Source: Candidatus Krumholzibacteriia bacterium
GTDB lineage: Bacteria > Krumholzibacteriota > Krumholzibacteriia > LZORAL124-64-63
DNA: 64,000 nucleotides
Assembly: GCA_014859985.1 (NCBI GenBank)
Contig: JACZKN010000092.1
Location: 5,980-69,979 of the forward strand
Reading direction: 5' to 3'
Of the stretch, positions 1 through 22,049 are shown piece by piece. Numbering within the stretch: the first letter of the stretch is position 1; every line of letters starts with the position of its first letter. The notes beneath the pieces are model-generated. The model saw nothing but the letters and a program-made list of their open reading frames with translations. It ran no database searches and was not told where the DNA came from. The position numbers and the translations under genes were made by a program.

Positions 1-126
1 TCCCGATCGACCCTCGACCGGCCGCGGCCTTTGCGGTAGTGTAGCAAGCTGTACGTCACGACATCTGGCCGCGAGGCAGACCGCAGCTCCGATGTCCGGC
101 TTCCTACCCTAAGAGCGTGCTCCAGC

Positions 127-327
127 ATGGCGGCGAGGAAGTACAAGTGTCCGAGTTGCGGTAGTTGGGCGGCCGTTAGGATCGTCTACGGGCTTCCGAC
201 GCCGGAGACCTGGGATCTGTCCGAGGCCGGCGAGATCGCGCTCGGCGGTTGCTGCCAGGAGATCGGCGCCCCCGACCGGAGGTGCAAGAAGTGCCGGTTC
301 GAATGGAATTCGAGGAACCATGAATAG
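127..327 (+). CDS. small zinc-ribbon protein (66 aa)
   Basis: CPSCGS...CKKCRF two CxxC pairs; overlaps start of next gene by 8 nt (translational coupling). Confidence 0.4.
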   Translation: MAARKYKCPSCGSWAAVRIVYGLPTPETWDLSEAGEIALGGCCQEIGAPDRRCKKCRFEWNSRNHE

Positions 328-1132
328 GCTGAGACTGCTCTCCCTACTTGAAGCTGCGGGTGTCGCTATTGACCGTAACAGCTACAAGATCCACCTCGCC
401 ACGGGAGACGATTTCCCGCCCATCGACGCCTTCTACGCTGGCGCCTTCAAGGAATGGCAGGAGAACCAAGCCAACAGGAACTTCGGCCGAGACATGGTAA
501 TCGGCCTGATCCACCTGGGTGCTGACCGCTGGTTGTTCGCCGGGGTGTATCGGGTCTTGGGATTCCAGCCAGCGGGCGAGCGGTTCAAGTACGAGACTGC
601 GCTCCTAGACGGCCAGGAAGACCTCATCGGCCGCTTGATCGTCCAGCACAAGCGCTCAGCCCGCGCCGCCTACCTGGTCGGCCAACCCGACGGCGGCCCT
701 TTTTACGTGGCCGAGTACCGGGCCCAGCCCATGGCCGTCGAGGATTTCCCGGGGTACAACTCCGTCTCCATCTCCTATTCGAAGCTCGCCCTGATCGTCG
801 CCCAGAACCTCGACACCTGGCGCGGGGCGCTCTCCAATATGAAGGGCGTCTACCTGATCACGGATCTCAACACGGGCAAGCTCTACGTCGGCAGCGCCAC
901 GGGCAATGACGGCCTCTGGCAGCGGTTGTGCGCCTACGCCGCGTCCGGACACGGGGGGAACAAGGATCTCAAACGCGTCCTCGGCGAGCATGGCGCTCGA
1001 TACGTCGAGAACTTCCAGTACTCCCTGCTGGAGGTCGCAGACTCGCGGGCGACTGACGAGTACATCCTGGGCCGGGAGTCGTTCTGGAAGTGCGTGGTGG
1101 CGAGTAGGCAATTCGGCTACAACGCGAACTGA
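320..1132 (+). CDS. GIY-YIG nuclease-domain protein with uncharacterised ~170-aa N-terminal domain
   Basis: C-terminal GVYLITDLNTGKLYVGSA...R..H...E matches the GIY-YIG motif; N-terminal part unrecognised. Confidence 0.55.
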   Translation: MNRLRLLSLLEAAGVAIDRNSYKIHLATGDDFPPIDAFYAGAFKEWQENQANRNFGRDMVIGLIHLGADRWLFAGVYRVLGFQPAGERFKYETALLDGQEDLIGRLIVQHKRSARAAYLVGQPDGGPFYVAEYRAQPMAVEDFPGYNSVSISYSKLALIVAQNLDTWRGALSNMKGVYLITDLNTGKLYVGSATGNDGLWQRLCAYAASGHGGNKDLKRVLGEHGARYVENFQYSLLEVADSRATDEYILGRESFWKCVVASRQFGYNAN

Positions 1133-1324
1133 CCGTCTCCAGGCTCCAGACCTACCTGACGAAGATGGGATGGGCGTCGCCGGGACTTTGGTGGGGGCCA
1201 TTCAGTACAACCCCACGGCCCCCGGAGGTGATTCCGCAGTCTGAATTGATTTTCGTTGAGGGAGCTTCAGCTCCGCGCCGTTAGTGCGGGCTTGCGGACG
1301 GGGTTTTGCGTAGGGGCAGGCAGG

Positions 1325-1981
1325 TTACAGAACGCTCACGTATAGTCCCCGGTATCCTGGACCCGCGCTGAGTATTATATAATCGGATTCGACGCGTAGA
1401 TTGGCACCCGCATCGATTGTCGCCATCTTTCTGCGAATCGCCGGGCCGGCTGCCCGGAGTAGTAAGCTGTGTACAGGCATGGTCGCTGGACGCACGATCA
1501 AATACCAGCGGTGAATTGGTCCCATGTCGCGTTGGACCTTCGCCAGTTCGGTGACAGCCGCTTCAGCCGGAAGCTCCTTGCGTATGTGACGAAAGATGGG
1601 CAAATCATCGACGACAAAATATTGTGCACAAGCCCCCTGAGACGAGAATGATTCAATCGCCTTGCTGCCTTGACGCACGAACCGATATAGCTCGAGCGTC
1701 GGAGGGGCAGATGGAGTGTACTTCACTCCAATTGCCACACGATCCGTCTGCCGAATGGTCTCAATCGCCCATTGGTGGAGGGCCGGCCAGGCAGCTACCG
1801 TAGTCGGAGGCAGCGACAGACCTTGTGCGGCACGGGGCAAGCAGTTGAACCGTATCGACCCGTCCGACCCAAGTCCAAGTTCTAAACCCCATGAGCCCTC
1901 AAGGAGCTGAAGATCCTTAGCGATGGCCACGAACTGGGGGTCGGCCCCAATAGAGGCAAGAGCAGCATCTATACAGTTCAT
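1325..1981 (-). CDS. hypothetical protein, translationally coupled (ATGA overlap) to upstream ATP-grasp ligase
   Basis: 218-aa ORF, no recognisable motifs; start overlaps ATP-grasp stop by 4 nt. Confidence 0.45.
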   Translation of the reverse strand: MNCIDAALASIGADPQFVAIAKDLQLLEGSWGLELGLGSDGSIRFNCLPRAAQGLSLPPTTVAAWPALHQWAIETIRQTDRVAIGVKYTPSAPPTLELYRFVRQGSKAIESFSSQGACAQYFVVDDLPIFRHIRKELPAEAAVTELAKVQRDMGPIHRWYLIVRPATMPVHSLLLRAAGPAIRRKMATIDAGANLRVESDYIILSAGPGYRGLYVSVL

Positions 1982-3012
1982 ACATGCACCGGCGGCGACT
2001 GCAAGATTGTGGCGATTGCGCGGCTAATCGGGAGGCCGGCAAGCTTTTCCGTCCATAGCCACTGTCCGTTTGGGTTCAGATCGAGAAATACAAACTTGCC
2101 GGTGGGCGTCACTGCGAAATCGATGCTCGCGAAATACAGCCCGAGGGATCTGACGAACCGGGTGCATGTCGCCTCCACTTCTTCCGGGAGCGCTATCGCC
2201 CTGTGAGAGACCTCGTCGAAGTTGTACCTCCGATAGTCGTGACGCGTGTCTGGATAGTCCTGTGAATGGATTGCGCACGCGAAGACTTGGTCTCCAACCA
2301 CGGTTGCTCTTACTTCGAATGCCTTAGGAATCCTCTCTTGGACAAGGCATGGTGCGGACTTCCACAAATGGTCGAGGACCAAGTCTTCTTCATTCAGGGG
2401 TTGCGAATATACAGCGTGCCTTCCGGTCGGGTAGTCGATCCATTGACTTCGTTGCAGCTTGAAGATCACGTCTCGGTTGTGATCCTCGTAGAACGCTCGT
2501 GCAAGCGTCACCGATGTCGTGACGAGTGTGTCAGGTATGTTGAACCCAAACCGTGCCGCCAGTTGATACTGGTAGCACTTCCGGTCCAGGGGTTCGTACA
2601 CGTCGCGATCGCACAAAACGAAGCCATCAAAGGCGGTGACAAGCGCCCTGAGGAGTTCGTCACGTTCGGAGACGATGATTCTGTGCTCATCTGAGCTCAC
2701 GCCAGCCGTGGCAGTGTCGGGGTCCTGGATTCTTCGGTGCCATATCGACCGCAAAGCCGTTGACGGTATTACTTCCATTCCAATCTGGATGGACCAACTG
2801 GCGTTTCCGGCTATGTGTTGGAAGCAAGGCTCGTGCTCGAATGGGTACTTGTCCGTATCGATTCGAACGAACGGTGTGCCCTCGTCCTCAAGCCACTCGC
2901 ATACGGCGGTTGCGTGTGGGTCGTCCGAGTAGGTTAGGATGAGAACGGTCAAGCGGGTCTCCCAAGCATACCAAGAAGGTGTTGCGCGGGGAGCATCGTA
3001 CCCGCGGGCCAC
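1978..3012 (-). CDS. ATP-grasp peptide ligase (MdnC/MvdD-like graspetide maturase family)
   Basis: N-terminal LTVLILTYSDDPHATAV..FVRIDTD and C-terminal FVFLDLNPNGQWLW..GLPI fit microviridin-type ATP-grasp ligases. GTG start at 3012 taken from the ORF track. Confidence 0.65.
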   Translation of the reverse strand: MARGYDAPRATPSWYAWETRLTVLILTYSDDPHATAVCEWLEDEGTPFVRIDTDKYPFEHEPCFQHIAGNASWSIQIGMEVIPSTALRSIWHRRIQDPDTATAGVSSDEHRIIVSERDELLRALVTAFDGFVLCDRDVYEPLDRKCYQYQLAARFGFNIPDTLVTTSVTLARAFYEDHNRDVIFKLQRSQWIDYPTGRHAVYSQPLNEEDLVLDHLWKSAPCLVQERIPKAFEVRATVVGDQVFACAIHSQDYPDTRHDYRRYNFDEVSHRAIALPEEVEATCTRFVRSLGLYFASIDFAVTPTGKFVFLDLNPNGQWLWTEKLAGLPISRAIATILQSPPVHV

Positions 3013-3033
3013 GACTTGGCCAAGCCTGACTAG

Positions 3034-3213
3034 CTAGTAGTCGTCGGGCACCCAAACACCGCCGATGGTGCTAGCCGAGGGCCACGTGGCGGCCTGCTCG
3101 CTCCTTGGGATGACGACCGGCGTCGCCTTCCGTCCAGCGAGCGTCTGGGCGGTCTGCTGGACGGCGGGCGGACGATCGGTGGAGCGGTTGGGTTGGGTGT
3201 TGGCGGTGTTCAT
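3034..3213 (-). CDS. candidate precursor peptide (59 aa) for the ATP-grasp ligase: MNTANTQPNRSTDRPPAVQQTAQTLAGRKATPVVIPRSEQAATWPSASTIGGVWVPDDY
   Basis: Hand-translated; absent from ORF track (below 60 aa). ATG at 3213 (minus) preceded by GGGGAGAAcg SD; stop 21 nt upstream of the ATP-grasp start; C-terminus rich in Thr/Ser and Asp (ester donor/acceptor residues). Confidence 0.5.
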   Translation of the reverse strand: MNTANTQPNRSTDRPPAVQQTAQTLAGRKATPVVIPRSEQAATWPSASTIGGVWVPDDY

Positions 3214-3701
3214 CGTTCTCCCCCTAAGTATTCACTTGCGATGAGTTCGCTTGAAGCGTGTGACCATGCGAGCGAGGCGAGTCAATTGAGAAATACGAGC
3301 AAGAAACTGTAGTCCAGAATCACTGGCCTGACCTCTCCCTGCGACAAGCGTTAACCCGCCAACGTGGGAGCAAGGCGGCGGACGAGCGATAGTACCTGCG
3401 AGCAATGCTTGCCCGTGCGAACGATACCAGATTCGACGCCTGTTTTCAAGCAACTTGGCGGTAGGACTTGGCGGTAGGATAGCTGGGTGAGGCCGTGCTA
3501 GCCCCAACTTGACCACAGATCTGCCACCGTGAAGGACTAAGGCGTAGTAGCGTAGATAGTTGCAGCGATATCGGCCGACATCTTGTAGGGGCGACTCATC
3601 GGAGCTAAACAACTATATTAGCTTCACAATTTCGCATTATTCACTGTACAAGTCGGGGCGACCGTGATAGCATACCCCCAGCCAAGAGGAGCTGGCGGCC
3701 C

Positions 3702-3917
3702 ATGCATCTGCGCATTTCCACCAGGAAGAAGGACCGTAAGACCTACCAGTACGTCCAGCTCGTCGAGAGCTTCCGGCGTGACGACGGCGTCCCCAGCCGC
3801 CGGACCGTCGCTAACTTGGGCCGGCTGACCGACCGTGAGATCGCCAACCTGCGCGTTGCCCTGCAGGCGTCGAGGTTGGGGATCACGCTTGAGCTTCCCG
3901 AGAGCGCCGACGATTAG
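3702..3917 (+). pseudogene. IS1634-family transposase N-terminal fragment (remnant)
   Basis: MHLRISTRKKDRKTYQYVQLVESFRRDDGVPSRRTVANLGRL matches the conserved N-terminus of IS1634-type transposases; ORF stops after 71 aa with no continuation; lower-GC scar 3240-3700. Confidence 0.5.
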
Positions 3918-3988
3918 GCCGATGGCATTAGCAGCCGCCGCACTGCAGCCTCAGTTCGGAGGCCCCATGCATTCGACCATCACCCACC

Positions 3989-4162
3989 CTACTTCGCCGC
4001 CGCCGTCTTCACTTTCGGCAGCACCTCGCACCCGTAGTAGCAGCACGCGCCCTTCTTCGCCTTGGGCGTCAGGCCGAGATCCTTGATCGCCTTCTTCACT
4101 TTCGTGTCGGGCAGGCCGAGCTCCTTCGCGATCGCACCGGCGGTCAACAAGTCGTCGGGCAT
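3989..4162 (-). CDS. small hypothetical protein (57 aa) with HTH-like N-terminus and CCYYGC motif
   Basis: Internal ATG at 4162 preceded by GAAGGAGGA SD; AIAKELGLPDTKVKKAIKDLGL helix-like. Confidence 0.35.
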   Translation of the reverse strand: MPDDLLTAGAIAKELGLPDTKVKKAIKDLGLTPKAKKGACCYYGCEVLPKVKTAAAK

Positions 4163-4271
4163 TGGTCGGTCCTCCTTCGCTTGCCATGGGCAGTTGGGTC
4201 CGGGGCTCGTGAGTTCAGGAACCTGGGGACGATAGATCGTAGTCATCTCTCAGCCCGTTGCTGAGGCGCGC

Positions 4272-5177
4272 TCATTTCACCAAGACCATCCTCTTCGTCT
4301 CGCTGTAGTCGCCGAACTCAAGGCGATAAAAGTAGACGCCAGCGGCTACGCGACGGCCCGCCGTATCTCGGCCTCGCCATACGGCTTCGTTGCGCCCCTC
4401 ATTAACGGTCTCGTTGCCGAGTATAACATCTACCAATCGTCCCGCCGCGTCGAACACCGAAAGGCAGACAACCCCCTGCTCAGTCACGTAGAATGGGATC
4501 GTCGTAGAGGGATTGAAGGGATTGGGGAAACACGGGCGAAGCAGGTCCTTCCCGGCGACCTCGCCGAGTTCACCCGCACTCGACAAACCAAGACCGTATG
4601 CCGTCCAGGCAAACCCACAGTAACCCCATGTCTCGTCACCTGTACTCACCATACGCACCCCCACCTGATAGTCGGGGTGTTCCTCTACTAGGCCGGCGGG
4701 AATCGTCAGAAGCAGCGTAGCGGTCATGACGCCGGGCGTCAGCGGATTCGCGTCGAATCGGAACTCCGCGTCCGTATTGATGTCATATCTTGTATCGTAT
4801 ATGAATACGATTTCATTCGGCTCAGTACCCCCGTCACTGACAACGCCAGCTCCGGTGAGCGGGAAAAAGTTACCTGGGCCGGCTCCGGCGCCATAGATCC
4901 TCAATCGTATTGCATTCGAGGTAGCTCCCGTTGGAGATTCGAGCGCAAGCGCCACGAGTACCCTATCAAGGCCGCCGCCACAGCTCCCGACGCAATATGT
5001 CGTACTCTCCCTGGACGGTGCAAACGACCAGAGCGAGAAGCCATTCCCGCCAGAACATCCACCCGTTCGGACCCAATAGTCCGCGGCATTGACTGCCGGC
5101 CCAGACCCCAACACGCCCACCAGAAACAACATGGCAATTCCGAGTGGACGCAAAGTACCTCGCACTTGCCGCAACAT
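4272..5177 (-). CDS. secreted protein with C-terminal FlgD-Ig/T9SS-like sorting domain
   Basis: Signal peptide MLRQVRGTLRPLGIAMLFLVGVLGSGPAVNAA from ATG at 5177; C-terminal CFPNPFNPSTTIPFYV...GVYFYRLEFGDYSETKRMVLVK motif. Confidence 0.55.
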   Translation of the reverse strand: MLRQVRGTLRPLGIAMLFLVGVLGSGPAVNAADYWVRTGGCSGGNGFSLWSFAPSRESTTYCVGSCGGGLDRVLVALALESPTGATSNAIRLRIYGAGAGPGNFFPLTGAGVVSDGGTEPNEIVFIYDTRYDINTDAEFRFDANPLTPGVMTATLLLTIPAGLVEEHPDYQVGVRMVSTGDETWGYCGFAWTAYGLGLSSAGELGEVAGKDLLRPCFPNPFNPSTTIPFYVTEQGVVCLSVFDAAGRLVDVILGNETVNEGRNEAVWRGRDTAGRRVAAGVYFYRLEFGDYSETKRMVLVK

Positions 5178-5852
5178 GAAGCACCCCGCGTATTCAGGAA
5201 AGTATGCCCCCCAGTGGACCAGGGGACCCAAAATGGTCTGCCACAGGGAAAAGGCTATCACAGATGGAGACACGATCACAAGTCGACGGGCACTTTCGCG
5301 GCATTCTCAGGCAACGACCATTCGAGCTCCCGGTTGTCCAATCTCGAGCGCGTGCCGCGGGCGCGACGGTATCGGCTTCGTCCCAGACGCCCCAAACCTC
5401 ACATTCATACCCCCAATAAGACCAGGCCAGCGGCCGGTATATCATTTAGGGGGATGATAGATACAAAGTCGCCCCTACAACGCTCTCGCAAGCGATTGCT
5501 GCCCAACGATTACACGTTTGGTGTGGTCGAGATTCTGACAACTGCTGGGTCTGAGCACCGCACAAAAACACAGACACAGACTGGTTCAGACAAAAACCGA
5601 CGGCCGTTCTGTTAACCGCGGGCGATTCAGACAGGCACGGTTCTCGCCTCCCACCCTCGCAAAACCCTTTGCCCCCGCGTCTTATAGCGACAAAAAAAGC
5701 AGGCGCAATGCACCTGCCCTCGTTTCCCTATTTGAAAAACTTGGCTCCCCAAACGTAACAGTTCTCGACACCGCCGCCGGCCCGGATGGGCCAAGCCCGA
5801 GGTCTGGTTCCGGATCGTCCATATCGCCCAGGAAGGCGCGGATAGGGCACCA

Positions 5853-6311
5853 GTGGCCGCCTACCGCGAACAGACGGTGGAAATCGCCCTGGGGCCCAAG
5901 GGGGCGTTCCAGACCGGGATCGTGGGCGCCCTGAAACGACGGGTGGCGCCTGACCAGACCGTCAACGCCCTGTCGGCCAAGGCCCGGAACCGGAAGCCGC
6001 CCAAGCCTCCCCAGACCCCGAAAGTGGTCGAGCTTCTCAGGACGGCCCAGGAGTGGCGGCGACAGCTCGACGCGGGCGAGGTCACGAACCAGGCCGAAAT
6101 CGCCCGTCGAGAAGGGATCACGCGCGCCCGGGTGACCCAGGTCATGAGTCTGGTACGCCTCGCGCCCGATATCCAGGAATACGTCCTGTCCCTCCCCGAA
6201 ACGGTCCGCCGACCGATAATCACCGAACGCGCTCTGCGGCCCATCGCGCTCCTGGAGACGGCGACCGACCAGAAGACCAGGTTTCAGGAACTCATCTCGG
6301 ACATCTCGTAG
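5853..6311 (+). CDS. DNA-binding protein with ParB/KorB-type HTH
   Basis: EVTNQAEIARREGITRARVTQVMSLVRLAPDIQEYVL resembles the ParB-family HTH; no ParB N-terminal nuclease motif. Confidence 0.4.
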   Translation: MAAYREQTVEIALGPKGAFQTGIVGALKRRVAPDQTVNALSAKARNRKPPKPPQTPKVVELLRTAQEWRRQLDAGEVTNQAEIARREGITRARVTQVMSLVRLAPDIQEYVLSLPETVRRPIITERALRPIALLETATDQKTRFQELISDIS

Positions 6312-6381
6312 AACGCACCCGTGATCAACTGGTGTGCTGAACAGGTTGCACCGCGGCAAATCGTGGGCTATTCTCGCCGAC

Positions 6382-7113
6382 ATGCCAAGATTTGACGACT
6401 TCATCGTATTCGTGGACGAGAGTGGGGACCATTGGATGGCCACCCCGGACCCGAATTACCCGATCTTCGTCCTTGCGTTCTGCCTCTTCAAGAAGAGCGA
6501 CTACTCCCATGTCGCCGTGCCAAAGCTGATCGACTTCAAATTCAAGCACTTCGGACACGACCAGATAGTTCTGCACGAGCGCGAGATCAGGAAATCGAAG
6601 GGTGACTTCAGCATACTCCAAATCGAGTCGGTTCGGGAAGCTTTCCAGCGCGACACAAACCAACTGATAGAAGATTCCCCGTTCACGCTAGTTGCCGGAG
6701 TGATCGACAAGGTCCGACTCCAGAACAACTACGCTACCCCGGAGAACCCGTACCACCTCGCAATGACGTTTGGCCTGGAGCGGATCTACCTTCATCTACA
6801 CAACTTTACGCCAGGAACGGTCTGGTTTGTCTTTGAGGAGCGGGGCAAGAAGGAGGATGCCGATCTGGAGCTGCAATTCCGGCGGGTGTGTGAAACAAAC
6901 GCAACGAGGAATGCGCTTCCGTTCAGAATCCGGTTCGCTTCGAAGGCCTCGAATTCGTGTGGGCTCCAGATCGCTGATCTGCTCGCGCGTCCGATCGGCC
7001 GGCACGTGATGAACCCGACCCAACCGAACAGGGCCTATGAGATCATCGAGCCGAAGTTCAGACGGAATCCACAGGGACGGATTGAAGGCTGGGGGCTCAA
7101 GGAGTTCCCGTAA
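6382..7113 (+). CDS. DUF3800-family protein
   Basis: N-terminal FIVFVDESGD and C-terminal GLQIADLLARPIGRH hallmarks; ATG at 6382. Confidence 0.55.
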   Translation: MPRFDDFIVFVDESGDHWMATPDPNYPIFVLAFCLFKKSDYSHVAVPKLIDFKFKHFGHDQIVLHEREIRKSKGDFSILQIESVREAFQRDTNQLIEDSPFTLVAGVIDKVRLQNNYATPENPYHLAMTFGLERIYLHLHNFTPGTVWFVFEERGKKEDADLELQFRRVCETNATRNALPFRIRFASKASNSCGLQIADLLARPIGRHVMNPTQPNRAYEIIEPKFRRNPQGRIEGWGLKEFP

Positions 7114-7221
7114 AAGCGAAGGGCCCCGACTTTCGCCGAGGCCACAACGCCGACCGAGTATTCCCAGTCCATTTTCACACAGGTTAGGGCTGGCCGGCCC
7201 GGGAGTCAATGGGAAATCGAG

Positions 7222-7953
7222 ATGAAATTGCTAACCGTAGATCAAAACGAGATCGCCACACGGCGGGTGAACGAGGCCATTGAGAAGCGCATAGGCCAGC
7301 TCCGGCTGGACTTGAAAGCCCTGAAGGAAGAGCTGAGTAACCGAGGCCTTCAGCTCGACTCGGGCGTTGCGTATCAGGAGTTCGCTCGACTAGCAGGGAC
7401 CACACTGGATGACCTAATTTGGGGTGCTTGGATGGCCCTACGCGACTTTCTAGGGGAAGTCGATCTCATCGCTCCAACCGGACTCGCCCGCGACGTCCAC
7501 GAGTTTCTTCGCCCGCAGACCGATCAACTTGAGCGTGTCGCCTTGGGGGTCGTCTACGAGAACCTCCACACTCTGAAGGAAGGGAATCCGAAGTACCGTA
7601 ATGAACTCGATCTCGCGCTCAAGAAAGCAATAGGCGATCGCAAACGACAGGTCTGGAACCGCGTCTGTACGGATTCCCGGTTGCTTGAAGAGCGACTAAG
7701 GAAGGAACAGCAAGTAGACGATCGAAGGGAACGACGCGCCGACAGGCGAGCACTCACGACCGCGATCTGGACCGTCGTAGCGACGGTGGTGCTAACAACG
7801 CTTGCCGGCCTTCTATTCAGGCCACGCGGTGAACCGGCTGGAGTCGCTCGACCAGAAAGTATCCAGCAGGTCGAAGTGCTACCAGATACGACATCTGCCG
7901 ATACTGTCGTCCGAGCGCCCTTGGACACAGCGACCGTAGACACGACGCGCTAG
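7222..7953 (+). CDS. coiled-coil protein with C-terminal transmembrane anchor, hypothetical
   Basis: 243 aa; charged helical N-terminal part, TM segment ALTTAIWTVVATVVLTTLAGLLF. Confidence 0.4.
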   Translation: MKLLTVDQNEIATRRVNEAIEKRIGQLRLDLKALKEELSNRGLQLDSGVAYQEFARLAGTTLDDLIWGAWMALRDFLGEVDLIAPTGLARDVHEFLRPQTDQLERVALGVVYENLHTLKEGNPKYRNELDLALKKAIGDRKRQVWNRVCTDSRLLEERLRKEQQVDDRRERRADRRALTTAIWTVVATVVLTTLAGLLFRPRGEPAGVARPESIQQVEVLPDTTSADTVVRAPLDTATVDTTR

Positions 7954-8924
7954 TTCTCCAATAAACGCTTGAGCGACCCGCGAACATCACCGATGTACCT
8001 ACCCGCCGCACCAAGAGCCTGCGACACGAGGATATGCCGTTCGTTCTCCAATTCGCCGACGATGTGGTCGACAAACAGCTGAGGCACTCCAAGATGCCTC
8101 GCTATCTCGTTGGTCTGGCGAAGTCCATCGTTGAGGATCGCGAGGATGACGTTGCGATGGATCTCACTAAAGTTCGGCACATATGCCTCGAAGTAGGTCG
8201 ACCAGCCGTAGTTTGTGACTTGGAAGCTGTCGAGGTTTGGCCCCAATGTAGCGTGAACCTCAACGAGCCCATGGTTCTCTAACACGTCGAGTGTGTCCCG
8301 CAATTCAGCCTCCGGAATGGCCAGGTCCCTGAGGACCAGGCCTGGCTCAACAAGGTACTCGCCTGACTCGACCATGAACTCGCACGAGTACTTGAACACT
8401 GCGCTATCCAGAGAGTTGAGGCCGTAGATGTGGGCAGCGTCCGCGGTCACGTATGCCGGGGGCGGCCCCAGTGGAGGCTTTGGCCGGTGATCGTAGACTG
8501 CGGCAACGATACTCTCGATCGCCTGCGTCGGGTCCTCTAGGTCATCAACCCGCTGCCAGACCGTAGATCGGAGTGGCTCCGGCACGTCGCAACCGTCGAG
8601 AACGACGGGGATGATCCTCGCTCCCTTCTGGATACGGCCAACGACAGCGGCGTTGAGTTCCTCCTTCACCCACGGCTTCGAGACGCTGAACTGCGAGAGT
8701 ACAAGGATCACTGCCGATGCGTTTCGGAGGCCTTCGTTGAAGATCTTATCGACAAGCGAATCGCCTGGAAGGATTTCCCAGAAATCGAGCCATACGTCAA
8801 TACCCCGCTCGCGCAGTTGCTCTGCGAGTCGGAACACGAAACGTTCCTTATCCTCGGAGGCGTGACTCAAGAACACTCTCGGGGCGCGGTCTTTGGTTTC
8901 CATGACACGAATGCTCCTTGTCAC
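7950..8924 (-). CDS. TIR-domain protein with tandem winged-helix-like C-terminal domains
   Basis: RVFLSHASEDKERFV...AVILVLSQFSVSKPWVKEEL is a canonical TIR with the catalytic Glu context; C-terminal repeats LRDLAIPEAELRDTL and LRQTNEIARHLGVPQ look like wHTH. Confidence 0.65.
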   Translation of the reverse strand: MTRSIRVMETKDRAPRVFLSHASEDKERFVFRLAEQLRERGIDVWLDFWEILPGDSLVDKIFNEGLRNASAVILVLSQFSVSKPWVKEELNAAVVGRIQKGARIIPVVLDGCDVPEPLRSTVWQRVDDLEDPTQAIESIVAAVYDHRPKPPLGPPPAYVTADAAHIYGLNSLDSAVFKYSCEFMVESGEYLVEPGLVLRDLAIPEAELRDTLDVLENHGLVEVHATLGPNLDSFQVTNYGWSTYFEAYVPNFSEIHRNVILAILNDGLRQTNEIARHLGVPQLFVDHIVGELENERHILVSQALGAAGRYIGDVRGSLKRLLEN

Positions 8925-9197
8925 CGGGCGGGCACGGGTCCTACTTGCCGATCGTGTCGTAGTTGGGAACGGTGCCGTCCCTGCGATGAACTACGACTCC
9001 ACCGTCGCCCTTCCGTCGGGCGATCTTGTTTGCTGACTGGTCGGCCTCGTGCTGAGGTAGGCGACGGTTTTCCCCCTGGGCTCCATTGTGCTTCCCGCGT
9101 CAACCGACTTTGGGATAAGGCATTACTGGCCGATCGTTGGATCTTTCCGCCATGGTCAGCCCCCTAATCTACAAGTACCTCCCACCGGAAGAGGACA

Positions 9198-11279
9198 CTA
9201 TTGACCAATAGCCAGGTCATCGAGGAACTCGGATGATGGTTCAACGCCGGTAACCAGGAGGTGGTCGCGCGCTCGCGTGCAGGCGACATAGAGTAGATGG
9301 CGTTCGGTGTTGTAGACCTCTTCAAGGTCCGCGTCATCCGCCACCGATTCAATTCGCTCCTGTAACGGCAGCACCTCATCGTCGCAGGCCATCACGGCGA
9401 CAGCTCGGAACTCGAGGCCTTTGGCCAGGTGCATCGTACAGATCGACACGCTCCCCGGCCGAGTGTCGAAGCTCTCCCGTAGCTCCAGGGCTTCAAGACC
9501 GGCGCGCTCCACCGCCGCCCTGGCACGGGGAAACTGCGCCGCAGAGCGCACGAAGATCCCGACCTCGCGCGGCTGCAACCCGTCCTTGCGAAGATCGACC
9601 AGCCAATCCGCGACGGACGCGATCTCATCCGATTCATCATCGAATCGTCGCAGCTCAGGGTTGGCTCCGTTGAACACGGACACCGTTCCGCGTCGGTTCT
9701 CCCGGTTCCCATCCACATCGGCCAATTCGGCTGGCAACAATCGATCTGCCTGTTGGCGGATCTGATGGGACGTGCGGTAGTTGACCCGCAAGGTAGAGGA
9801 GCGCCCACGCACGTCGACACCGAGAGACTTCCAGGAAAACGGCGGTTGGAATATTCGCTGTCCAAGATCGCCGGCGAAGAATAGCCCATCTGGACGACCC
9901 GTTGAAAGCGCAGCCAGAAAGCGTAGCTCGGGGACGCCGATATCCTGTGCCTCGTCCACGACAGCGAAGTCATACGGGCAGCTACTAGCGGCGAGGAGCC
10001 GCTTGGAAACCGCGGCAAACATCATGGCCATGGTGATCTCGCCACGTCTTGCTAGCTCTTGCCACACCCGGTCGAATACCGACCACAGGACCTGCCTCTG
10101 CTGCTCACCAAGTCTGGTCTTTCGCCCCAAGCGGGCAACATCCCGGTAAGTCTCCCATGTGTCCAGTTGCCACGCATCGACGACATCGTTCCATTCCGTC
10201 CACAAGAAGTGATCTGTGAATCGGTGGCCGCCAACGTCACGCGAAGCGCTCTTCAGCATGGCGCGCAACTCGGGCTCATGGACCAATTTCGGTTTGGTCA
10301 CCAAAGCGGCGTGCAGCCGCCGCCCGACCTCGCCGATCGCCAGGACCTCGATCCTTTCGAACAGTCTCGCGTCATTTCCGACCAGACGGCGCAGCTTTAC
10401 ACGAAGTGCGTCTGCCAGAGTGCCGGAAAACGTGGTCAGAAGAACGCGCGCGTTCTCATCTCGCTTTGCAAGGAATGCTGCACGGTGAAGTGCAACGACG
10501 GTCTTTCCTGTACCCGCGGAGCCTGCCACGCGCGCGGGGCCGGTGAACGTCCGCTCGACCAAGGTGCGCTGCGCCGGATGTAGGAATACCGTCCACTTTT
10601 CCCACGGGTAGTCCAGAGCCAGGCGCAGTTCATCGACGTTCGCCATGACCCGGAACCGGCGAAGCGCATCGGGATGCTCAAATGGATCGCCTTGCTCAGT
10701 TGCAGCGACAGGGACAGGTGGCATCCCCCCTGTGGCGATCTCGAGCAAAGCCTCGGCCGCCTCAGCTGGAAGACGGTCTGCGAGCTCGAGAATCGTGTCT
10801 TCTGTCGCTGTACGCACATTGGCTAGCCAATCGACCGGCACGCCATACGACAAGAGCGTGTGGTCATCAAGCGCAGCAAACGGGGTCTTCTGCGGCCGTT
10901 CGGGTTCCTGGGCCTCGATGAATTTGGGGATGACGATCTCTTGGTACGTCTCGCGGATCTCGACAATCTGAGCGGCACCCGTTGTCGGGTGTGCTTCCAG
11001 CTTACGCTTTTCCGCCCACCGATAGGCGTCATCGTGATGCCCGGCAAAGCAGAGCACCAGGCTCGCTGCGGTCTTGTGGACAATCAGACGCAGATCCTTG
11101 CTGACCCGTACCGACCAGAAGTTCTTGTCCTTCGCCTTCTCGAGCTTGTGGAACTGCATGCTCGGGTGTGCCGGATTGACCTGGAGGTCGAATGCCGTCG
11201 TCTTGACGGCCTTCTGCTCGTCACCTGAGAGTCGGCCCAGGCTGGTCGTAAAGGTGTCGGCAATTCGAAACGTAATCAT
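9198..11279 (-). CDS. UvrD/Rep-like SF1 helicase with N-terminal RelE/ParE-fold domain
   Basis: Helicase motifs I GSAGTGKT, II VVDEAQD, VI TMHLAKGLEFRAV; first ~100 aa (...LQVNPAHPSMQFHKL..WSVRVSKDLRLIVHKTAASLVLCFAGHHDDAY) follows the RelE/ParE toxin pattern; start overlaps Mod stop (ATGA). Confidence 0.65.
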   Translation of the reverse strand: MITFRIADTFTTSLGRLSGDEQKAVKTTAFDLQVNPAHPSMQFHKLEKAKDKNFWSVRVSKDLRLIVHKTAASLVLCFAGHHDDAYRWAEKRKLEAHPTTGAAQIVEIRETYQEIVIPKFIEAQEPERPQKTPFAALDDHTLLSYGVPVDWLANVRTATEDTILELADRLPAEAAEALLEIATGGMPPVPVAATEQGDPFEHPDALRRFRVMANVDELRLALDYPWEKWTVFLHPAQRTLVERTFTGPARVAGSAGTGKTVVALHRAAFLAKRDENARVLLTTFSGTLADALRVKLRRLVGNDARLFERIEVLAIGEVGRRLHAALVTKPKLVHEPELRAMLKSASRDVGGHRFTDHFLWTEWNDVVDAWQLDTWETYRDVARLGRKTRLGEQQRQVLWSVFDRVWQELARRGEITMAMMFAAVSKRLLAASSCPYDFAVVDEAQDIGVPELRFLAALSTGRPDGLFFAGDLGQRIFQPPFSWKSLGVDVRGRSSTLRVNYRTSHQIRQQADRLLPAELADVDGNRENRRGTVSVFNGANPELRRFDDESDEIASVADWLVDLRKDGLQPREVGIFVRSAAQFPRARAAVERAGLEALELRESFDTRPGSVSICTMHLAKGLEFRAVAVMACDDEVLPLQERIESVADDADLEEVYNTERHLLYVACTRARDHLLVTGVEPSSEFLDDLAIGQ

Positions 11280-14137
11280 TCGACTCTGAACACCTTCATC
11301 ACCTCGTCACCGAGATGGTTGATCACCTTCACTGCGATTCTGCCACCTGCAGGCTTGTCGAATGGACGCGATGTATCGCTATGCAAACTCTCCCAGGCAT
11401 CCTCGTTGATCTCCGCCTTGAGGGTCGTCTTGAGGCTCTTGTATGGGTCACTCGCGCCGAGAAAGTAGGCGTGGCGAACGAAGAAGCTCTCTCCGTTGTA
11501 GTCGGTGTCGATGAACCAGCATGCGATGCCCTCGGCGCCGTCGCTGCGGACCTCGCCTGTATTCGGGTGGAACACGTCCACGCCGTTGATCCGCACTTTG
11601 ATCTGGCTGTCCTCGGCGTCGTCACTATCGACCGGAAGAACGTCGATATCCGGCTCGCCGAAGATCACGAACAGGTTGCCCTTGCCGGTGTTCTTCAGGT
11701 CGTCGGCCATGTGCAGGTCGGCGTTCATCCGGGCCTTGAGCACCGGGACACGGCCGAGCTTGTCGAACTCCGACGAGTGGGCGTCGTAGTTGAAAGCGCA
11801 CGCGATCAACACGTCGAAGCCCGCATCGCCGGCCTCGCGGGCGGCCAGCACCAGATCCTGGCGGCTGACGGTGCCGAATTCCGGGCCGATGAAGATGCCC
11901 GCTCTACGGGTCTCGTTGCCACCCTTTCCGTCGGAGAACATACCCTCGGCGCAGATGAATGTGCCCGGCCAGCCCTTGATGGAGCTGAAGTTGATCTTGT
12001 CTTCCTTGTGCGCCTGCTGCACGCCTGCCGTCTTGAGGTTGTCCAGGATCATCTCGACGAAGCCATCACCATCTGCCACCGGCTGCGGGCCAGCCTGCTG
12101 CGGATCGATCAGCTCGTCGTTTTCATCCACGTCCATCACGCGGTGTGGGCTGAGCGATTCGACGGTGAATGGCCCGGCCACGCGGACTTTGCTGCGATCC
12201 TCGTAGGGTTTGTCGAAGAGGAACTCGAAGTCGGCCTTGGCAGCGATGGAGGCGTCAATCTTCCGCTGGCGCGCGATGCGAGCCTTCCACCAATCGCTGT
12301 GGAGCTTCTTTGTTGTGTCCGGCCATTTCGTGTCAGCCTCGCGTGGAATCTCCCAATCCTCCCACTTGGTCTTCATCGCGGCGTTCAGCGTCTGGCGTTG
12401 TGGCTCGAGCGCCTCCTGCCACTTCTCCCAAATGACGTCGATCTCGGCATTGTTGGCAATCGACTTGAGAGTAATGTGCGGGACACGCTCGTAAACGAAG
12501 CCGTGGCGGATGTTGCCATAAACTCGTTGGGTGCTCGGTGTTGTATGGGTAAGCTCAGCTTCCTTGAGCTGGCCGTCCATGGAGTCAGCGAGTATGTAGT
12601 AAGGATAACGGGCGCCCATGATGCGAGCGCGAGCAAGAGCTAAGGCCACCCGAGAGGTGTCAATCGTTATCCAGCGGCGGCCCCACTGCTCCGCAATCGC
12701 CGCTGTAGTCCCTGCGCCACAAGTTGGATCCAGAACGAGGTCGCCTGGGTCCGTTGCCATAAGGACGCAGCGTTGAATTACCTTCTCATTGGTCTGCACC
12801 ACATACATTTTGCGGTCGCTTGTGAACCCGGCCACGCCCGTATCTGTCCAGACGTTAGTGCGGGGCATTACGGCGAAGTCGTCAAAGTAACGTTTGTATC
12901 TCAAGCTGTTGCCAACGACCAATAATCGATTTGCCTTGCGCAAGCGGTGCATTCCAACTGTGGAAGTGGACCAGTACCGATGACCGCTCCGAAACTCTTT
13001 GCCGAACGCCGAGATCGGCTCCGAGAGACTTTCGTGTGACGACGTGAGGTCGCTAGCCGCAAACACCCGTACGTTGTCGCTGGGGTCTGGGTCAACAAGG
13101 TCACTCAAACTGAGTCGCTTGGTTTGACCGTCTTGGAGCTCGGCATAGTTGTATCCTTTGGAACCCGTCCCCCCGAGTTCTTTCAATTCGACGGAGTTGC
13201 GATACTTCACGCGCTCAGAATCTTTAGCGTACCAGAGAATTGTGTCATTCACTTGGGGCAAGAGTCCTCGACCTTGGGTGCTAGTCGTGACGTAGTGTAT
13301 GGTGGCGCAACAATTCTCATCGCCGAACACTTCATCAAGTAGCGCCCTCACGCGATGCGTGTGCTCATCGCCGATCTGGACGAAGATCGATCCCGTTTCT
13401 GTCAGCAAGTCACGTGCGACAGTCAGGCGGTCACGGAGGTAGGTTAGGTACGAGTGAATACCATCCCGCCAAGTGTCGCGGAAGGCCTTGACCTGTTCTG
13501 GCTCGCGGGTGATGTGCTCGACGTTGCCGTCCTTGACATCGCGGCTGGTGGTGGACCACTGAAAATTGGAGTTGAACTTGATACCGTACGGCGGGTCGAT
13601 GTAGATGCACTGCACCTGCCCGCGTAGACCTTCGCGTTCGGTCAGGGAGGCCATCACCTGGAGCGAATCGCCCAGGATCATGCGGTTGGTCCAGTTGGCG
13701 TCGTGCTGGTAGAACTCAGTGCGAGCGTTCTCGTTGGGAAGACCGTTGAAATCGGCGAACAGATCGGGAAACAGGCTAGGCGCGGCATTCTCGGCTTCCT
13801 CGTGCTCCTGTTGCTGAGTGCGGCGCATCAGGTCATCGATCAGCACCTTGGGGTGGACCTTCTCCTGGATGTACAGCGGCGGTGCGTAGACGATGAGGTC
13901 CGACCAGTCCTGCTCATCCTTGCCCCGCCAAACAAGCTGCGGATCTAGATCGCGGTTGCGCGCAGATTTCTCCTCGTCCAGCCCGCCCGCACCCCGTTCG
14001 TAGGTTACCTCGATGGGTCGAGCGTGGTGCTCCGGCACGACAGACTCGAGCTCGGCGGTAGGGATATTCTTGCGCGACGCTTCCTCGTGAGTCAGCGTTT
14101 CGACCGTCTTCCGCTTCTTGCTTACTCGCTTCGCCAT
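11276..14137 (-). CDS. mod: Type III-like N6-adenine/N4-cytosine DNA methyltransferase (Mod, beta-class) with long N- and C-terminal extensions
   Basis: Motif IV QCIYIDPPYG precedes motif I LDPTCGAGTTAAIA (beta order); 953 aa; SD AAAGGA before ATG. Confidence 0.7.
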   Translation of the reverse strand: MAKRVSKKRKTVETLTHEEASRKNIPTAELESVVPEHHARPIEVTYERGAGGLDEEKSARNRDLDPQLVWRGKDEQDWSDLIVYAPPLYIQEKVHPKVLIDDLMRRTQQQEHEEAENAAPSLFPDLFADFNGLPNENARTEFYQHDANWTNRMILGDSLQVMASLTEREGLRGQVQCIYIDPPYGIKFNSNFQWSTTSRDVKDGNVEHITREPEQVKAFRDTWRDGIHSYLTYLRDRLTVARDLLTETGSIFVQIGDEHTHRVRALLDEVFGDENCCATIHYVTTSTQGRGLLPQVNDTILWYAKDSERVKYRNSVELKELGGTGSKGYNYAELQDGQTKRLSLSDLVDPDPSDNVRVFAASDLTSSHESLSEPISAFGKEFRSGHRYWSTSTVGMHRLRKANRLLVVGNSLRYKRYFDDFAVMPRTNVWTDTGVAGFTSDRKMYVVQTNEKVIQRCVLMATDPGDLVLDPTCGAGTTAAIAEQWGRRWITIDTSRVALALARARIMGARYPYYILADSMDGQLKEAELTHTTPSTQRVYGNIRHGFVYERVPHITLKSIANNAEIDVIWEKWQEALEPQRQTLNAAMKTKWEDWEIPREADTKWPDTTKKLHSDWWKARIARQRKIDASIAAKADFEFLFDKPYEDRSKVRVAGPFTVESLSPHRVMDVDENDELIDPQQAGPQPVADGDGFVEMILDNLKTAGVQQAHKEDKINFSSIKGWPGTFICAEGMFSDGKGGNETRRAGIFIGPEFGTVSRQDLVLAAREAGDAGFDVLIACAFNYDAHSSEFDKLGRVPVLKARMNADLHMADDLKNTGKGNLFVIFGEPDIDVLPVDSDDAEDSQIKVRINGVDVFHPNTGEVRSDGAEGIACWFIDTDYNGESFFVRHAYFLGASDPYKSLKTTLKAEINEDAWESLHSDTSRPFDKPAGGRIAVKVINHLGDEVMKVFRVE

Positions 14138-14148
14138 TATGAAATCCT

Positions 14149-17100
14149 TTAGGCCGTCTGATTGGTTACGGAGTCGATCATCCTGTTGAACTCGGCCTCG
14201 ACTCTGGCCTCGAAATCGCTGCCGATCTGGTAGACGTCAGCGAACTCTGCAAACGCCCATCGGCCGTAGGTGCCAAGGTTATTCACTCCAGGTACCCAGT
14301 AGACGTCCATCGTAGACTTCTTCTCCTTGGCGTCTTCGCCGCGATATCCCTTGATCTCCACGACCAAGTGTAGCGGATCATCTTCTCCGCGTCCGTCGTC
14401 AACCAGGACGATGAAGTCGGGGATGTACGTTCGCATCTGGGAGCCGAAACGATACGGCACTTCCATCCCGAGGTTGTGATTTTTGACGTACGACCGAACG
14501 CAAGGATGCGCCTCCGCCACGCGGCAGAACTCCGCCTCCCAGTCGCTATCCAGAATGACCCAGTTGATGTGGCAACGTCTGGAATCCGTCTGCCACCGGT
14601 CTCTTTTCGATGTGTTGAAGTTCACAAATGAAGTCGAACCCGTCGGGTTATACGGATCAAGCACGGCCTTGATCGGCCGCTCGCCGATGAGCGAGCGGGT
14701 GATACCGGCTGTGATCCGCTCGCAGGCCATGTCTGCCAATTCCTGGTACATCAGTAATGCCGGGTAGGTGTCCCCTTTGCACTCGAGGCAGCTTTCCAGC
14801 CACTGCTTCGTTATGCGCTTTAGCTGCCCGAATAAATGAAGCTTTGGCTCCTCACCAGGATCTCGCCACTTCGTGTAAAGCAGCCGCTTCGTGACGTGGA
14901 ACAGCAACGTTGAGCGGCGCATGTCCCCAAGGTGCTCGAGGCTCAAATCGACGTCTTCGCCAATGATTCCCGCGTTCTTCGTGATCGATGGGCCAACGAT
15001 ATCGGGCGTCAGTACTAGAACCGAATCGTCGTTGAATTCAGCCGACAGCCTCTCTTCCGGCAACTCCACACGATAGCCATCCACTCGGGGAAAGCGGATC
15101 TCCAAGGAGTCGCGCTCTGGCCGTACAGCTTTGACTTGCACGGTTTCCCGCGGGGGCTGAGGCGGCGCTACTACCGGCTTAGCAGTGAAGTCGAACGGTA
15201 CGCCGAGAACGTCGGCATATTCGACGTTGAAGAGATTCTCTTCGTTCAGGTCATAGGATTGCCTGCGAAGAGCACGGCCGATGACCTGCTCACATAGCAA
15301 CTGCGTGCCGAACGCTCGCACACCCAGAACGTGTGTGACGGTGTTGGCGTCCCAACCCTCGGTCAGCATGGAGACCGACACCACGCAGCGGATCGATTCT
15401 CCCAGACGGTCTGGCTTCCCGACCGTGTTCATCACTTCTCGGAGCAGGTCTTGGTCTGTGAGGTTTTCGGCCTGCCGGAGGTCACCTGTTCGCTCGACGA
15501 TCTCTCGACGAAAGCGATCGATCTCGTCTGAGGCGAGATCTCGGAAATTCTTGTCCAGGGCATCCCCAGATTCGAGTTGTTCGCTGTCGATCAGCAAAGT
15601 CCGTGGGCGACCCAGTGGATTGCCATGGTCGTCAAAGTTTCGAAAGAGCTCCAGCCGGCCATTCTCGAGCGTTGTCGAACCGTCCTCGTTCTCTCTCTGG
15701 AAGCCAGAGATATAGTCGTACACCAGCTTCGAGGTCGAAGTGTTGTTGCAGACGACAATGAAGCATGGCGGGACCTTGATGGATGCCTTCTGCCATAGTT
15801 CGTATGTCTTTTCATAGTGGCCATAGAGGGCTTCAAGTGCTGTCTGCAACTCAACAGGGATGCTGAGTGGGTCAAGCGTCTTCCCTTTGCCGCGCCCCTT
15901 CTTTGGCATCCGCTTCCCGATATGCTCCCAAAGGTTCCGGAACTTCGGCATCTCCTCGCCTGGAATGTTGTCGGCGACCGGAACGCGAGGAAGTTTGACG
16001 ATGCCGCATTCGATGGCATCCATGAGCGAGAAGTCGCACATCGTCCAAGGGAAAAGGGTGCCTTCGGCGTAGCCGGAACCTCGCAGGAAGAACGGGGTCG
16101 CCGATAGATCGAAGACCTGGGCGAGGCCAAGCTTCCGGTTAATGGCTTCCAGACCCGAAATCCACACCCTTGCGGCTTCGTTGTTCTTTTCCGCTTCCTT
16201 GCGGTCGTCCCCCTTGAGGTCTCCCTCGTCATCGTTGACCTGCTTCTCGCGATAGCAGTGATGGCCTTCGTCATTGAGCGCCAAGACGTTTTTCATGCCC
16301 ATCAAGTCGGGCATGACTCGCTGAAGCATCTGCCCTTCCGATTCAAGGGTACTCAACTCCTCGCCACGTCCCTGAAGCAGTGAGCGACCGCCCTTCGACA
16401 GATCCAGCCGTTCCCGCAGCTTGAACGAGTGGAAGTTCGTAATGACGATCTTGGCGCGATCGAGATCGGCCAACATGTCGTTGGGTACGAGTTCGCGACT
16501 CTGGTAGTAGCTGTCGGGATCGTTGGGCAACAAGACGCGTAGGCGGTCACGGATCGTGATTCCCGGTGCGACGACAACGAAACCACGCGTGAACTTCTTG
16601 CTGGTTGGCCTCCGCACTGCGTTGATTGTCTGCCAAGCGATGATCATCGCCATGACCGTGGTCTTCCCTGCACCAGTCGCCAGCTTGAGCGCCAACCGTA
16701 ACAGCTCAGGATTGGCCTGTTCGTTCGCAGCCTTAAGATGATCAACGAGCTGGCGCCCTGTCTTGCCAGACTTCGGCGCGACCTCCCAAAGCCAAATAGC
16801 GGTCTCGACGGCTTCCAACTGGCAGAAAAACGGACGAAAGGAGGCGAACTTATGGTGCCGCCAATGTTGGAGGAGCCGAGCTGTCTCCGGCGTCACCTGC
16901 CATTGACTGGAGTTGGGCAGCGCTCTCCAACGATCGACTTCCCTGCGAACAGCATTGATGATCGGTGTCGGGTCATATTGCTGTTCTTGGGTCGAGAGCC
17001 CTTTGCCCTCATTGAAGACGATCTCTTGCTGCGTCTTCTTCTTGTGCTTCCGAGGCTTGGGAATAGGCGTTATCAGCTGGCAAGGCCGACGACGATCGAC

Positions 17101-17202
17101 AACTTTCTGGGTCGGTTGGCCGTTCTCATCAAGCTCCCAATGACGAATGGGGTAGTCGTATGGAGAATTGAGGATTGGATGCTTGAAGAACTCGTGATCC
17201 AT
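14149..17202 (-). CDS. res: Type III-like restriction endonuclease/helicase subunit (Res)
   Basis: MDHEFFKHPILNSPYDYPIRHWELDENGQPT N-terminus, Walker A LATGAGKT, DEGHH box, C-terminal PD-(D/E)xK-like D...EIKGYRGEDAKEKK. Start moved to internal ATG at 17202 because the track ORF upstream overlaps the HTH gene in another frame. Confidence 0.7.
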   Translation of the reverse strand: MDHEFFKHPILNSPYDYPIRHWELDENGQPTQKVVDRRRPCQLITPIPKPRKHKKKTQQEIVFNEGKGLSTQEQQYDPTPIINAVRREVDRWRALPNSSQWQVTPETARLLQHWRHHKFASFRPFFCQLEAVETAIWLWEVAPKSGKTGRQLVDHLKAANEQANPELLRLALKLATGAGKTTVMAMIIAWQTINAVRRPTSKKFTRGFVVVAPGITIRDRLRVLLPNDPDSYYQSRELVPNDMLADLDRAKIVITNFHSFKLRERLDLSKGGRSLLQGRGEELSTLESEGQMLQRVMPDLMGMKNVLALNDEGHHCYREKQVNDDEGDLKGDDRKEAEKNNEAARVWISGLEAINRKLGLAQVFDLSATPFFLRGSGYAEGTLFPWTMCDFSLMDAIECGIVKLPRVPVADNIPGEEMPKFRNLWEHIGKRMPKKGRGKGKTLDPLSIPVELQTALEALYGHYEKTYELWQKASIKVPPCFIVVCNNTSTSKLVYDYISGFQRENEDGSTTLENGRLELFRNFDDHGNPLGRPRTLLIDSEQLESGDALDKNFRDLASDEIDRFRREIVERTGDLRQAENLTDQDLLREVMNTVGKPDRLGESIRCVVSVSMLTEGWDANTVTHVLGVRAFGTQLLCEQVIGRALRRQSYDLNEENLFNVEYADVLGVPFDFTAKPVVAPPQPPRETVQVKAVRPERDSLEIRFPRVDGYRVELPEERLSAEFNDDSVLVLTPDIVGPSITKNAGIIGEDVDLSLEHLGDMRRSTLLFHVTKRLLYTKWRDPGEEPKLHLFGQLKRITKQWLESCLECKGDTYPALLMYQELADMACERITAGITRSLIGERPIKAVLDPYNPTGSTSFVNFNTSKRDRWQTDSRRCHINWVILDSDWEAEFCRVAEAHPCVRSYVKNHNLGMEVPYRFGSQMRTYIPDFIVLVDDGRGEDDPLHLVVEIKGYRGEDAKEKKSTMDVYWVPGVNNLGTYGRWAFAEFADVYQIGSDFEARVEAEFNRMIDSVTNQTA

Positions 17203-17213
17203 TGGGGGCGTCC

Positions 17214-22024: not shown

Positions 22025-22049
22025 GGATGCATCACTACTGGATGCATGA
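22025..22049 (+). promoter_or_regulatory. direct repeats GGATGCAT(C/G)A x2 (each containing palindromic ATGCAT) overlapping the capsid gene start
   Basis: ggatgcatcactactggatgcatga read directly. Confidence 0.4.

Follow-up and report, generated by a model that had tools for sequence, protein, structure and literature searches.

Does a bacterial protein that joins a TIR domain to two winged helices act against phage by itself, and does it do so by sensing DNA? The question is raised by a gene on contig JACZKN010000092.1 of Candidatus Krumholzibacteriia bacterium (assembly GCA_014859985.1), within the 64,000-nucleotide stretch from position 5,980 to 69,979 that was analyzed as a whole (the window, in whose own numbering positions are given). 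The preliminary description of this locus had proposed a stand-alone, DNA-sensing TIR effector of uncommon architecture.

Our favored reading, held with moderate confidence, is a self-contained, single-polypeptide anti-phage sensor-effector that would destroy nicotinamide adenine dinucleotide (NAD+), with a predicted activity and a putative trigger, oligomerization and abortive outcome. The N-terminal AbTir-type TIR domain would serve as NAD+ glycohydrolase/cyclase with E89 as the catalytic glutamate, and the C-terminal twin winged helix-turn-helix (wHTH) module would be a conserved sensor or regulatory unit that holds the TIR domain inactive until an infection cue arrives, the cue more likely being a protein or a ligand other than duplex DNA than duplex DNA itself. 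Once activated, the TIR domains would assemble with one another and consume NAD+, arresting the infected cell in the way reported for bSEFIR and other NAD+-depleting systems (10.1101/2024.02.11.579819). We prefer a single-chain system because no fixed partner gene was found, the surroundings are those of defence genes, the family is widely spread, the module is re-used and the defence protein bSEFIR offers a precedent; the protein is best read as a functional analog of bSEFIR with an unrelated C-terminus.

The open reading frame (ORF) is an intact, real gene. Its true start is probably the ATG at 8903-8901 rather than the GTG at 8924, and the resulting 317-aa version is 100% identical to the deposited protein of a Krumholzibacteria metagenome-assembled genome. 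Residues are numbered by the 324-aa ORF; subtracting 7 gives the numbering of the 317-aa annotated protein (E89 = E82). The features of the gene are as follows.

7950..8924, minus strand: entire reading frame of the TIR-twin-wHTH protein; translation from GTG 8924 gives 324 aa and ends at the stop codon 7950-7952
8914..8919, minus strand: Shine-Dalgarno-like AAGGAG, read from the sequence, 10 nt 5' of the ATG at 8903
8490..8882, minus strand: TIR domain, AbTir/TcpB-like, ORF residues 15-145 (Pfam TIR_2, PDB sequence matches, Foldseek)
8658..8660, minus strand: codon of E89, the predicted catalytic Glu, in the motif KPWV[KR]EEL
8451..8480, minus strand: linker motif KPPLGxxPxY, residues 149-158, conserved across the family
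8181..8429, minus strand: predicted winged helix 1 (wHTH1), residues 166-248, strongly acidic, with conserved D173, C181, P204, E207, D210, T237 and G240
7953..8180, minus strand: predicted winged helix 2 (wHTH2), residues 249-324, near neutral, with conserved N265, L292 and R320; H286 is kept in fusions of the module that lack TIR

The TIR domain and its relatives

Pfam TIR_2 (PF13676) covers residues 17-137 at E=2.9e-28 and 99.2 bits, against a gathering cutoff of 28. The closest solved structures by both sequence and fold are the bacterial TIR NADases BtTir, AbTir, TcpB/BtpA and PdTIR. In PDB sequence searches the single protein matched BtTir and AbTir with an E-value near 7e-15, which fell to about 1e-20 when the family profile was used as query, and Foldseek placed the domain on 7uxu, 7uxr and 8g83 with ∼30-34% identity in the structural alignments; by a count made by eye, sequence identity to proven TIR NADases is ∼40-45% over 91 aligned residues. 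Cat1 was a weak match to the domain in both the sequence and the fold searches. In the HMMER alignment the query segment 'skpWvkEELnaav' pairs with 'kkdWtnyELdglv' of AbTir, so that E89 falls on the Glu of 'WtnyEL', which we take to be the catalytic E208. In an alignment of 40 full-length homologs (43-87% identity) E89 is invariant in 40/40, as are E88, W85 and much of the TIR core; the W..E catalytic context named in the preliminary description is thus kept. Because the nearest relatives are proven NADases and the catalytic Glu with its motif is invariant, the TIR domain is probably an NAD-destroying enzyme.

The fusion partner of the domain sets the protein apart from these NADases, with which it shares the best sequence and structure matches and the position of the catalytic Glu. 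In AbTir, BtTir, TcpB (BtpA) and PdTIR, which have been discussed as virulence factors, the TIR domain is C-terminal and is preceded by a coiled coil or another region; to our knowledge, none of them has a wHTH module. A closer parallel in overall design is bSEFIR of Bacillus sp. NIO-1130, a validated single-gene defence that is found in defence islands (10.1101/2022.05.11.491447) and is reported to deplete NAD+ (10.1101/2024.02.11.579819). Both are single polypeptides with an N-terminal TIR-superfamily domain, a KPxLGxxPxY linker (at residues ∼157-166 of bSEFIR) and a non-catalytic C-terminal region. All 40 family members match the PADLOC bSEFIR hidden Markov model (HMM); for the window protein the match (PDLC03957, E=9e-18) covers model positions 33-203 of 412 only, and BLASTP against validated bSEFIR aligned residues 15-167 only (26% identity, E=1e-9). 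The comparison used ∼400 of the 468 bSEFIR residues, taken from the supplement of Millman et al.; within these, the profile of the C-terminal region gave an hhalign probability of 2.8% against the bSEFIR C-terminus, limited to the linker. The KPxLGxxPxY linker is therefore common to two groups of proteins whose C-terminal domains are unrelated. bSEFIR also differs in length (468 aa vs. 317 aa here), and the AbTir-type WxxxE helix is present here. Under the rule by which bSEFIR was defined, the SEFIR match must be stronger than the TIR match (Millman 2022); the window protein has no SEFIR match at E<0.1 while TIR_2 scores 99 bits, and its homologs carry weak SEFIR matches only. Vibrio cincinnatiensis DSM 19608 and Methylococcus capsulatus Texas, both of which were in the genome set of that work and carry the TIR-wHTH family, are not listed in its Table S6 of bSEFIR genes.

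The gating of a TIR NADase by a sensor domain in cis is shared with SpbK, E. coli TIR-V/VI/IX, Cat1 CARF-TIR, TIR-SAVED and TIR-STING (PMC12847820, PMC11350192, PMC12162218). The sensors of these single-protein TIR defences are CARF, SAVED, STING and others, not twin wHTH; here the SAVED_TIR model matches the TIR core only, and the C-terminus is predicted as two winged helices, not as a SAVED, STING or cyclic-nucleotide-binding domain. The best PADLOC matches are PDC-S66 and bSEFIR, both through the TIR core only. The candidate PDC-S66 ranks first (E=1.2e-23), matches residues 13-107 on model positions 147-240 of 282 and differs in having its TIR at the C-terminus and no counterpart of the wHTH module. 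The NCBIfam model Retron-TIR (NF042941), whose definition needs a reverse transcriptase domain, reached 85.7 bits against an equivalog cutoff of 600 through the TIR part only, and the NCBIfam Thoeris type III model matched the TIR core only, far under its cutoff. We found no description of a TIR-twin-wHTH architecture in the literature on bSEFIR and on anti-phage TIR/HTH proteins.

Gene neighborhoods and the question of a partner

To look for partner genes, we called ORFs in the window and in 86 related loci, clustered the proteins all against all and scanned the immediate neighbors with Pfam and PADLOC. The neighbor analysis rests on the 80 loci with a called TIR gene, and that of immediate neighbors on 77 non-redundant loci. 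No gene family is conserved beside the TIR-wHTH gene across the 80 loci; the partners are clade-specific only (HmaC, Thoeris II, DUF4238, SIR2_2). Immediate neighbors are heterogeneous and rich in defence genes, including Mrr, MmeI, AAA_21/AbiEii, KAP NTPase, DUF4062, SLATT, Fic and YaaC, together with ThsA/ThsB, HmaC, Old/GajA-like and SIR2 proteins. In 15/80 loci, the window included, a methyltransferase is encoded on the same strand no more than 8 kb upstream. The associations that call for coordinates are these.

L021 6558-8940, L056 8001-11260 and L086 7968-10440: TIR-wHTH gene beside ThsB and ThsA_Macro (type II Thoeris), in three gene orders
L020, L024, L026, L037, L038, L041, L043, L047, L049 and L055: TIR-wHTH gene (at ∼8001 in most) abutted by HmaC

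The first group bears on the possibility that the protein is a signal-generating TIR of the ThsB type, whose messenger, a cyclic ADP-ribose (cADPR) isomer or a derivative of ADP-ribose, would activate an effector encoded nearby or elsewhere, in place of killing through NAD+ depletion by the TIR protein itself. Like ThsB, which is thought to sense infection, it is a TIR protein, and AbTir/BtTir-type TIRs reportedly make cADPR isomers. Besides the three loci with ThsB and ThsA_Macro, the gene follows ThsB genes in four more (L023, L034, L042, L053), the first three of which also carry a short TIR-only paralog and an uncharacterized ∼190-230-aa gene (cluster 32) alongside. The gene of the closest homolog (87% identity) is flanked by transposases and, in two contigs, is followed by a gene for a 284-aa SIR2_2 protein. 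DUF4238 genes are found nearby in four loci representing three distinct places (L001-L004), and a TIR defence system that includes DUF4238 was reported in an E. coli survey (PMC11350192). Pfam ThsB_TIR (PF08937) scored just above its cutoff (21.9 vs. 21.2 bits), over residues 56-110 only, and the PADLOC ThsB models matched the TIR core only, at E 1e-10 or weaker.

Most of the 80 loci, however, have no such partner, and the Thoeris-adjacent loci already have their own ThsB, a protein of ∼185-220 aa with a ThsB_TIR domain only. Neighbors differ even between near-identical copies: the protein of the closest homolog recurs on other contigs with different neighbors, and its neighborhood is unlike that of the window. 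As for the window itself, the adjacent ThsA (SIR2-SLOG or Macro-TM) that marks a Thoeris system was found neither among the neighbors nor elsewhere in the 64 kb; a Pfam sweep of its 47 ORFs, among the 25 of 26 families listed, gave no SIR2, SLOG, Macro, STING, SAVED, DUF4238 or ThsA gene and no cyclase-type family. The missing ThsA, STING or SAVED partner in the preliminary description therefore stands, and we consider a ThsB-type signal generator unlikely.

A different association is seen in a mostly Burkholderiales clade. A ∼980-aa HmaC (DUF499, full-length PADLOC match) is encoded upstream on the same strand in 11/80 loci, directly abutting the TIR-wHTH gene in 10 and further upstream in the remaining one (L036). 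In 9/9 loci inspected, the TGA of HmaC overlaps the ATG of the TIR-wHTH gene (ATGA), which makes the two genes translationally coupled; Comamonas granuli NBRC 101663 and Ottowia sp. VDI28 are examples of strains with this overlap. Further upstream a DUF1156-type DNA methylase or PDC-M61A/B is found, and PDC-M41A often lies downstream. In this clade the TIR-wHTH gene has the appearance of an accessory to Hma/DUF499 systems that has not been described before; a 2026 survey of DUF499/BREX does not mention TIR. We concluded that 'stand-alone', as the protein had been called, fits the window and most loci, but not those relatives whose copy shares an operon with HmaC/DUF499 or neighbors Thoeris type II genes.

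The winged-helix module, its possible ligands and its re-use

The C-terminal region was examined by structure prediction. In an AlphaFold2 model of the full-length protein built on the 40-homolog alignment (mean predicted local distance difference test (pLDDT) score 84.6), the chain beyond residue 166 is mostly above 90 and forms two units of three helices and a hairpin; residues 151-324 modeled alone with 58 sequences gave a pLDDT of 92.9 and a predicted template-modeling score (pTM) of 0.85. The region has the three-helix bundle and beta-hairpin wing of the wHTH fold, and hhalign detects homology between its two halves (probability 93%, E=2.8e-7). Together with the TIR_2 match, this bears out the fusion of TIR to tandem winged-helix-like domains that had been proposed from the letters, and the C-terminus aligns to neither ThsB nor the bSEFIR C-terminus. 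Foldseek returned TIR matches only for the full-length model, and the wHTH matches come from the separate C-terminal model: they are weak, badly superposing tandem winged-helix structures with a TM-score of ∼0.3 (TFIIIC tauB, cullin, ScpB, SelB, ESCRT-II, YceH). The named wHTH families of Pfam all stayed under cutoff (TrmB 20.0 vs. 25.6, HTH_20 16 vs. 27, HTH_5 15.6 vs. 22), and profile searches gave weak TrmB, ArsR and Csa3-HTH matches at residues 252-298.

A winged-helix fold is by itself no proof of DNA binding, and the charge of the module bears directly on the DNA-sensing role that the preliminary description had assigned to it. wHTH1 has 3 K/R against 14 D/E, a net charge of -11 (family mean -6.8, pI range 4.1-5.6), and its helix in the recognition position has a net charge of -4 (family mean -4.2), in which the acidic E207 and D210 are conserved. 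wHTH2 is close to neutral overall, with a net charge of -3 in the recognition-position helix (family mean -1.6). Canonical recognition of duplex DNA is therefore disfavored; these features of the sequence argue against duplex-DNA sensing and are compatible with other binding modes. An NADase that is switched on through winged helices bound to foreign or damaged DNA, such as the products of adjacent restriction-type systems, would have to be reconciled with these charges as well as with the lack of any wHTH Pfam family at cutoff. The nearest tandem winged-helix structures are, weakly, protein- and RNA-binding scaffolds (ScpB, ESCRT-II, cullin, SelB), and restriction-modification (R-M) genes are the commonest island neighbors in any case. 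We regard such a DNA-sensing TIR as quite improbable.

The architecture is far from uncommon. A word-indexed search found full-length homologs in 1112 clusters at 90% identity; in the best 120 of these, nearly all proteins are 310-327 aa long with a query coverage of 85-98% (outliers of 285, 317 and 338 aa). At least 142 species carry it, as counted in a pattern-limited scan with one genome per species, and the phyla include Pseudomonadota, Acidobacteriota, Chloroflexota, Planctomycetota, Bacteroidota, Chlorobiota, Nitrospirota, Cyanobacteria, Fibrobacterota and Ignavibacteriota. The one archaeal carrier is Methanosphaerula, with a full-length copy of 39% identity on the Methanosphaerula subterraneus chromosome (L084 8001-8951); its presence in a methanogenic archaeon points to transfer between domains. 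One full-length copy lies on a Rhodoferax plasmid, and others were found within an integrative and conjugative element (ICE), adjoining genes for type IV secretion, and next to Tn7-like genes. A DNA search of complete E. coli genomes, of low sensitivity at such divergence, gave no full-length homolog, and a phage collection yielded partial TIR matches only and no full-length homolog.

The C-terminal module alone is represented by 443 sequences at 50% identity. Among the best 150 of these representatives, 103 have TIR, 38 are module-only or short proteins (possibly fragments) and 7 have other N-termini, in which Pfam recognized Ser/Thr kinases (P0227, P0191, P0190), a caspase (P0246) and a cytidine deaminase (P0242); in P0217 the module stands behind an unassigned N-terminus of 180 aa. 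The non-TIR fusions keep the motifs GL..ID....K..CE, IP...ESL..L, F..T..GF..YA, N...A..L, H.L..L and S..L.R. The KPPLGxxPxY linker is missing from them and therefore belongs to the TIR/SEFIR side. Because the same module is fused to kinase, caspase and deaminase domains, the data suggest a portable sensor or regulator, and the swapping of effectors on one module is typical of conflict systems. A non-defence transcription factor or housekeeping regulator, with TIR as interaction or ligand-sensing domain and the wHTH pair as output, would agree with the commonest use of the wHTH fold and with the weak TrmB, ArsR and Csa3 matches, but we consider it very improbable in view of the invariant catalytic Glu, the acidic wHTH surfaces, the patchy and horizontally mobile distribution (islands, ICEs, Tn7-like element, plasmid), the fusions to other toxic-type effectors and the lack of a conserved adjacent regulated operon.

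The island in the window and the weight of the evidence

In the window, the TIR-wHTH gene stands between an operon on its own strand and convergent genes on the other.

14149-17526, minus strand: ResIII/endonuclease protein, 1125 aa, upstream operon
11276-14137, minus strand: type III Mod, 953 aa, full-length match to PADLOC MTase_III, upstream operon
9198-11279, minus strand: UvrD-like helicase, 693 aa, its start overlapping the Mod stop, upstream operon
7222-7953, plus strand: coiled-coil/transmembrane protein, 243 aa, with one C-terminal transmembrane helix, convergent with the TIR gene and overlapping its stop by 4 bp
6334-7953, plus strand: DUF3800 gene and the 243-aa coiled-coil/transmembrane gene, a pair also found in L093 (5837-7687) and L094 (429-2048)
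5853-6311, plus strand: small ParB-HTH-like protein (Pfam HTH_ParB, E=8.7e-5), adjoining the DUF3800 cassette

A type III R-M system with an extra superfamily 1 helicase in one operon (9198-17526) is an unusual combination, and the N-terminal ∼230 aa of the helicase gave only a faint RelE/HigB-like match. The convergent 243-aa gene was considered as a TIR partner and rejected: among 5.8 billion proteins no more than three homologs of its product were found, the gene is always preceded by DUF3800, and this pair once occurs without any TIR gene; the two genes form a possible separate two-gene cassette. The ParB-HTH-like gene hints at a mobile nature of the island, at present or in the past. The GC content is ∼0.58 at positions 1-18000, where the TIR gene lies, and ∼0.65 beyond; at this step begin lambda-like prophage genes (∼17500-50000) with a portal (19893-21401), a protease-capsid fusion (22046-24025), terminase gpA, tape measure and tail proteins and Prim-Pol/PriCT/DUF3987. 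The defence island may be a cargo region at the prophage end.

Several observations weigh against the single-chain reading. The full-length model has a pTM of 0.54, so that the arrangement of TIR and wHTH domains, and hence autoinhibition, is not confidently predicted. The module is ∼45% identical across phyla with invariant polar residues, which is unusual for a sensor of fast-evolving phage proteins; a small-molecule or host-factor ligand might explain this conservation no less well than a phage protein would. The operonic overlap with HmaC and the adjacency to Thoeris II in some relatives indicate that the protein may not always act alone. In the window, the 273-bp gap that separates the TIR-wHTH gene from the helicase gene contains no promoter-like or same-strand terminator-like site (a promoter scan being uninformative for this phylum), and independent expression can only be presumed.

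A more far-reaching view can be put forward tentatively, and we think it unlikely. The acidic twin-wHTH module would be an undescribed portable immune sensor that gates at least four unrelated effector types (TIR NADase, caspase, Ser/Thr kinase, cytidine deaminase) and that in one clade is wired, via the ATGA overlap, to the DUF499/HmaC BREX-related, R-M-like systems and could serve as a second, abortive layer, firing once the restriction-type layer has been engaged or blocked. The copy that lies behind the type III R-M and helicase genes in the window would then represent a looser coupling.

If confirmed, the family would be a widespread single-gene, NAD+-targeting defence present in many phyla and one archaeon and catalogued so far only through generic TIR matches, and its C-terminus would be a new sensor module, redeployed in evolution with warheads of the kinase, caspase and deaminase types. 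The tight HmaC/DUF499 coupling in some bacteria would offer a handle on the wiring of restriction-like and abortive layers. Sensor-TIR fusions are already an established theme and current ideas would not be overturned; the main interest lies in the portable twin-wHTH module and, for one clade, in the operon shared with HmaC.

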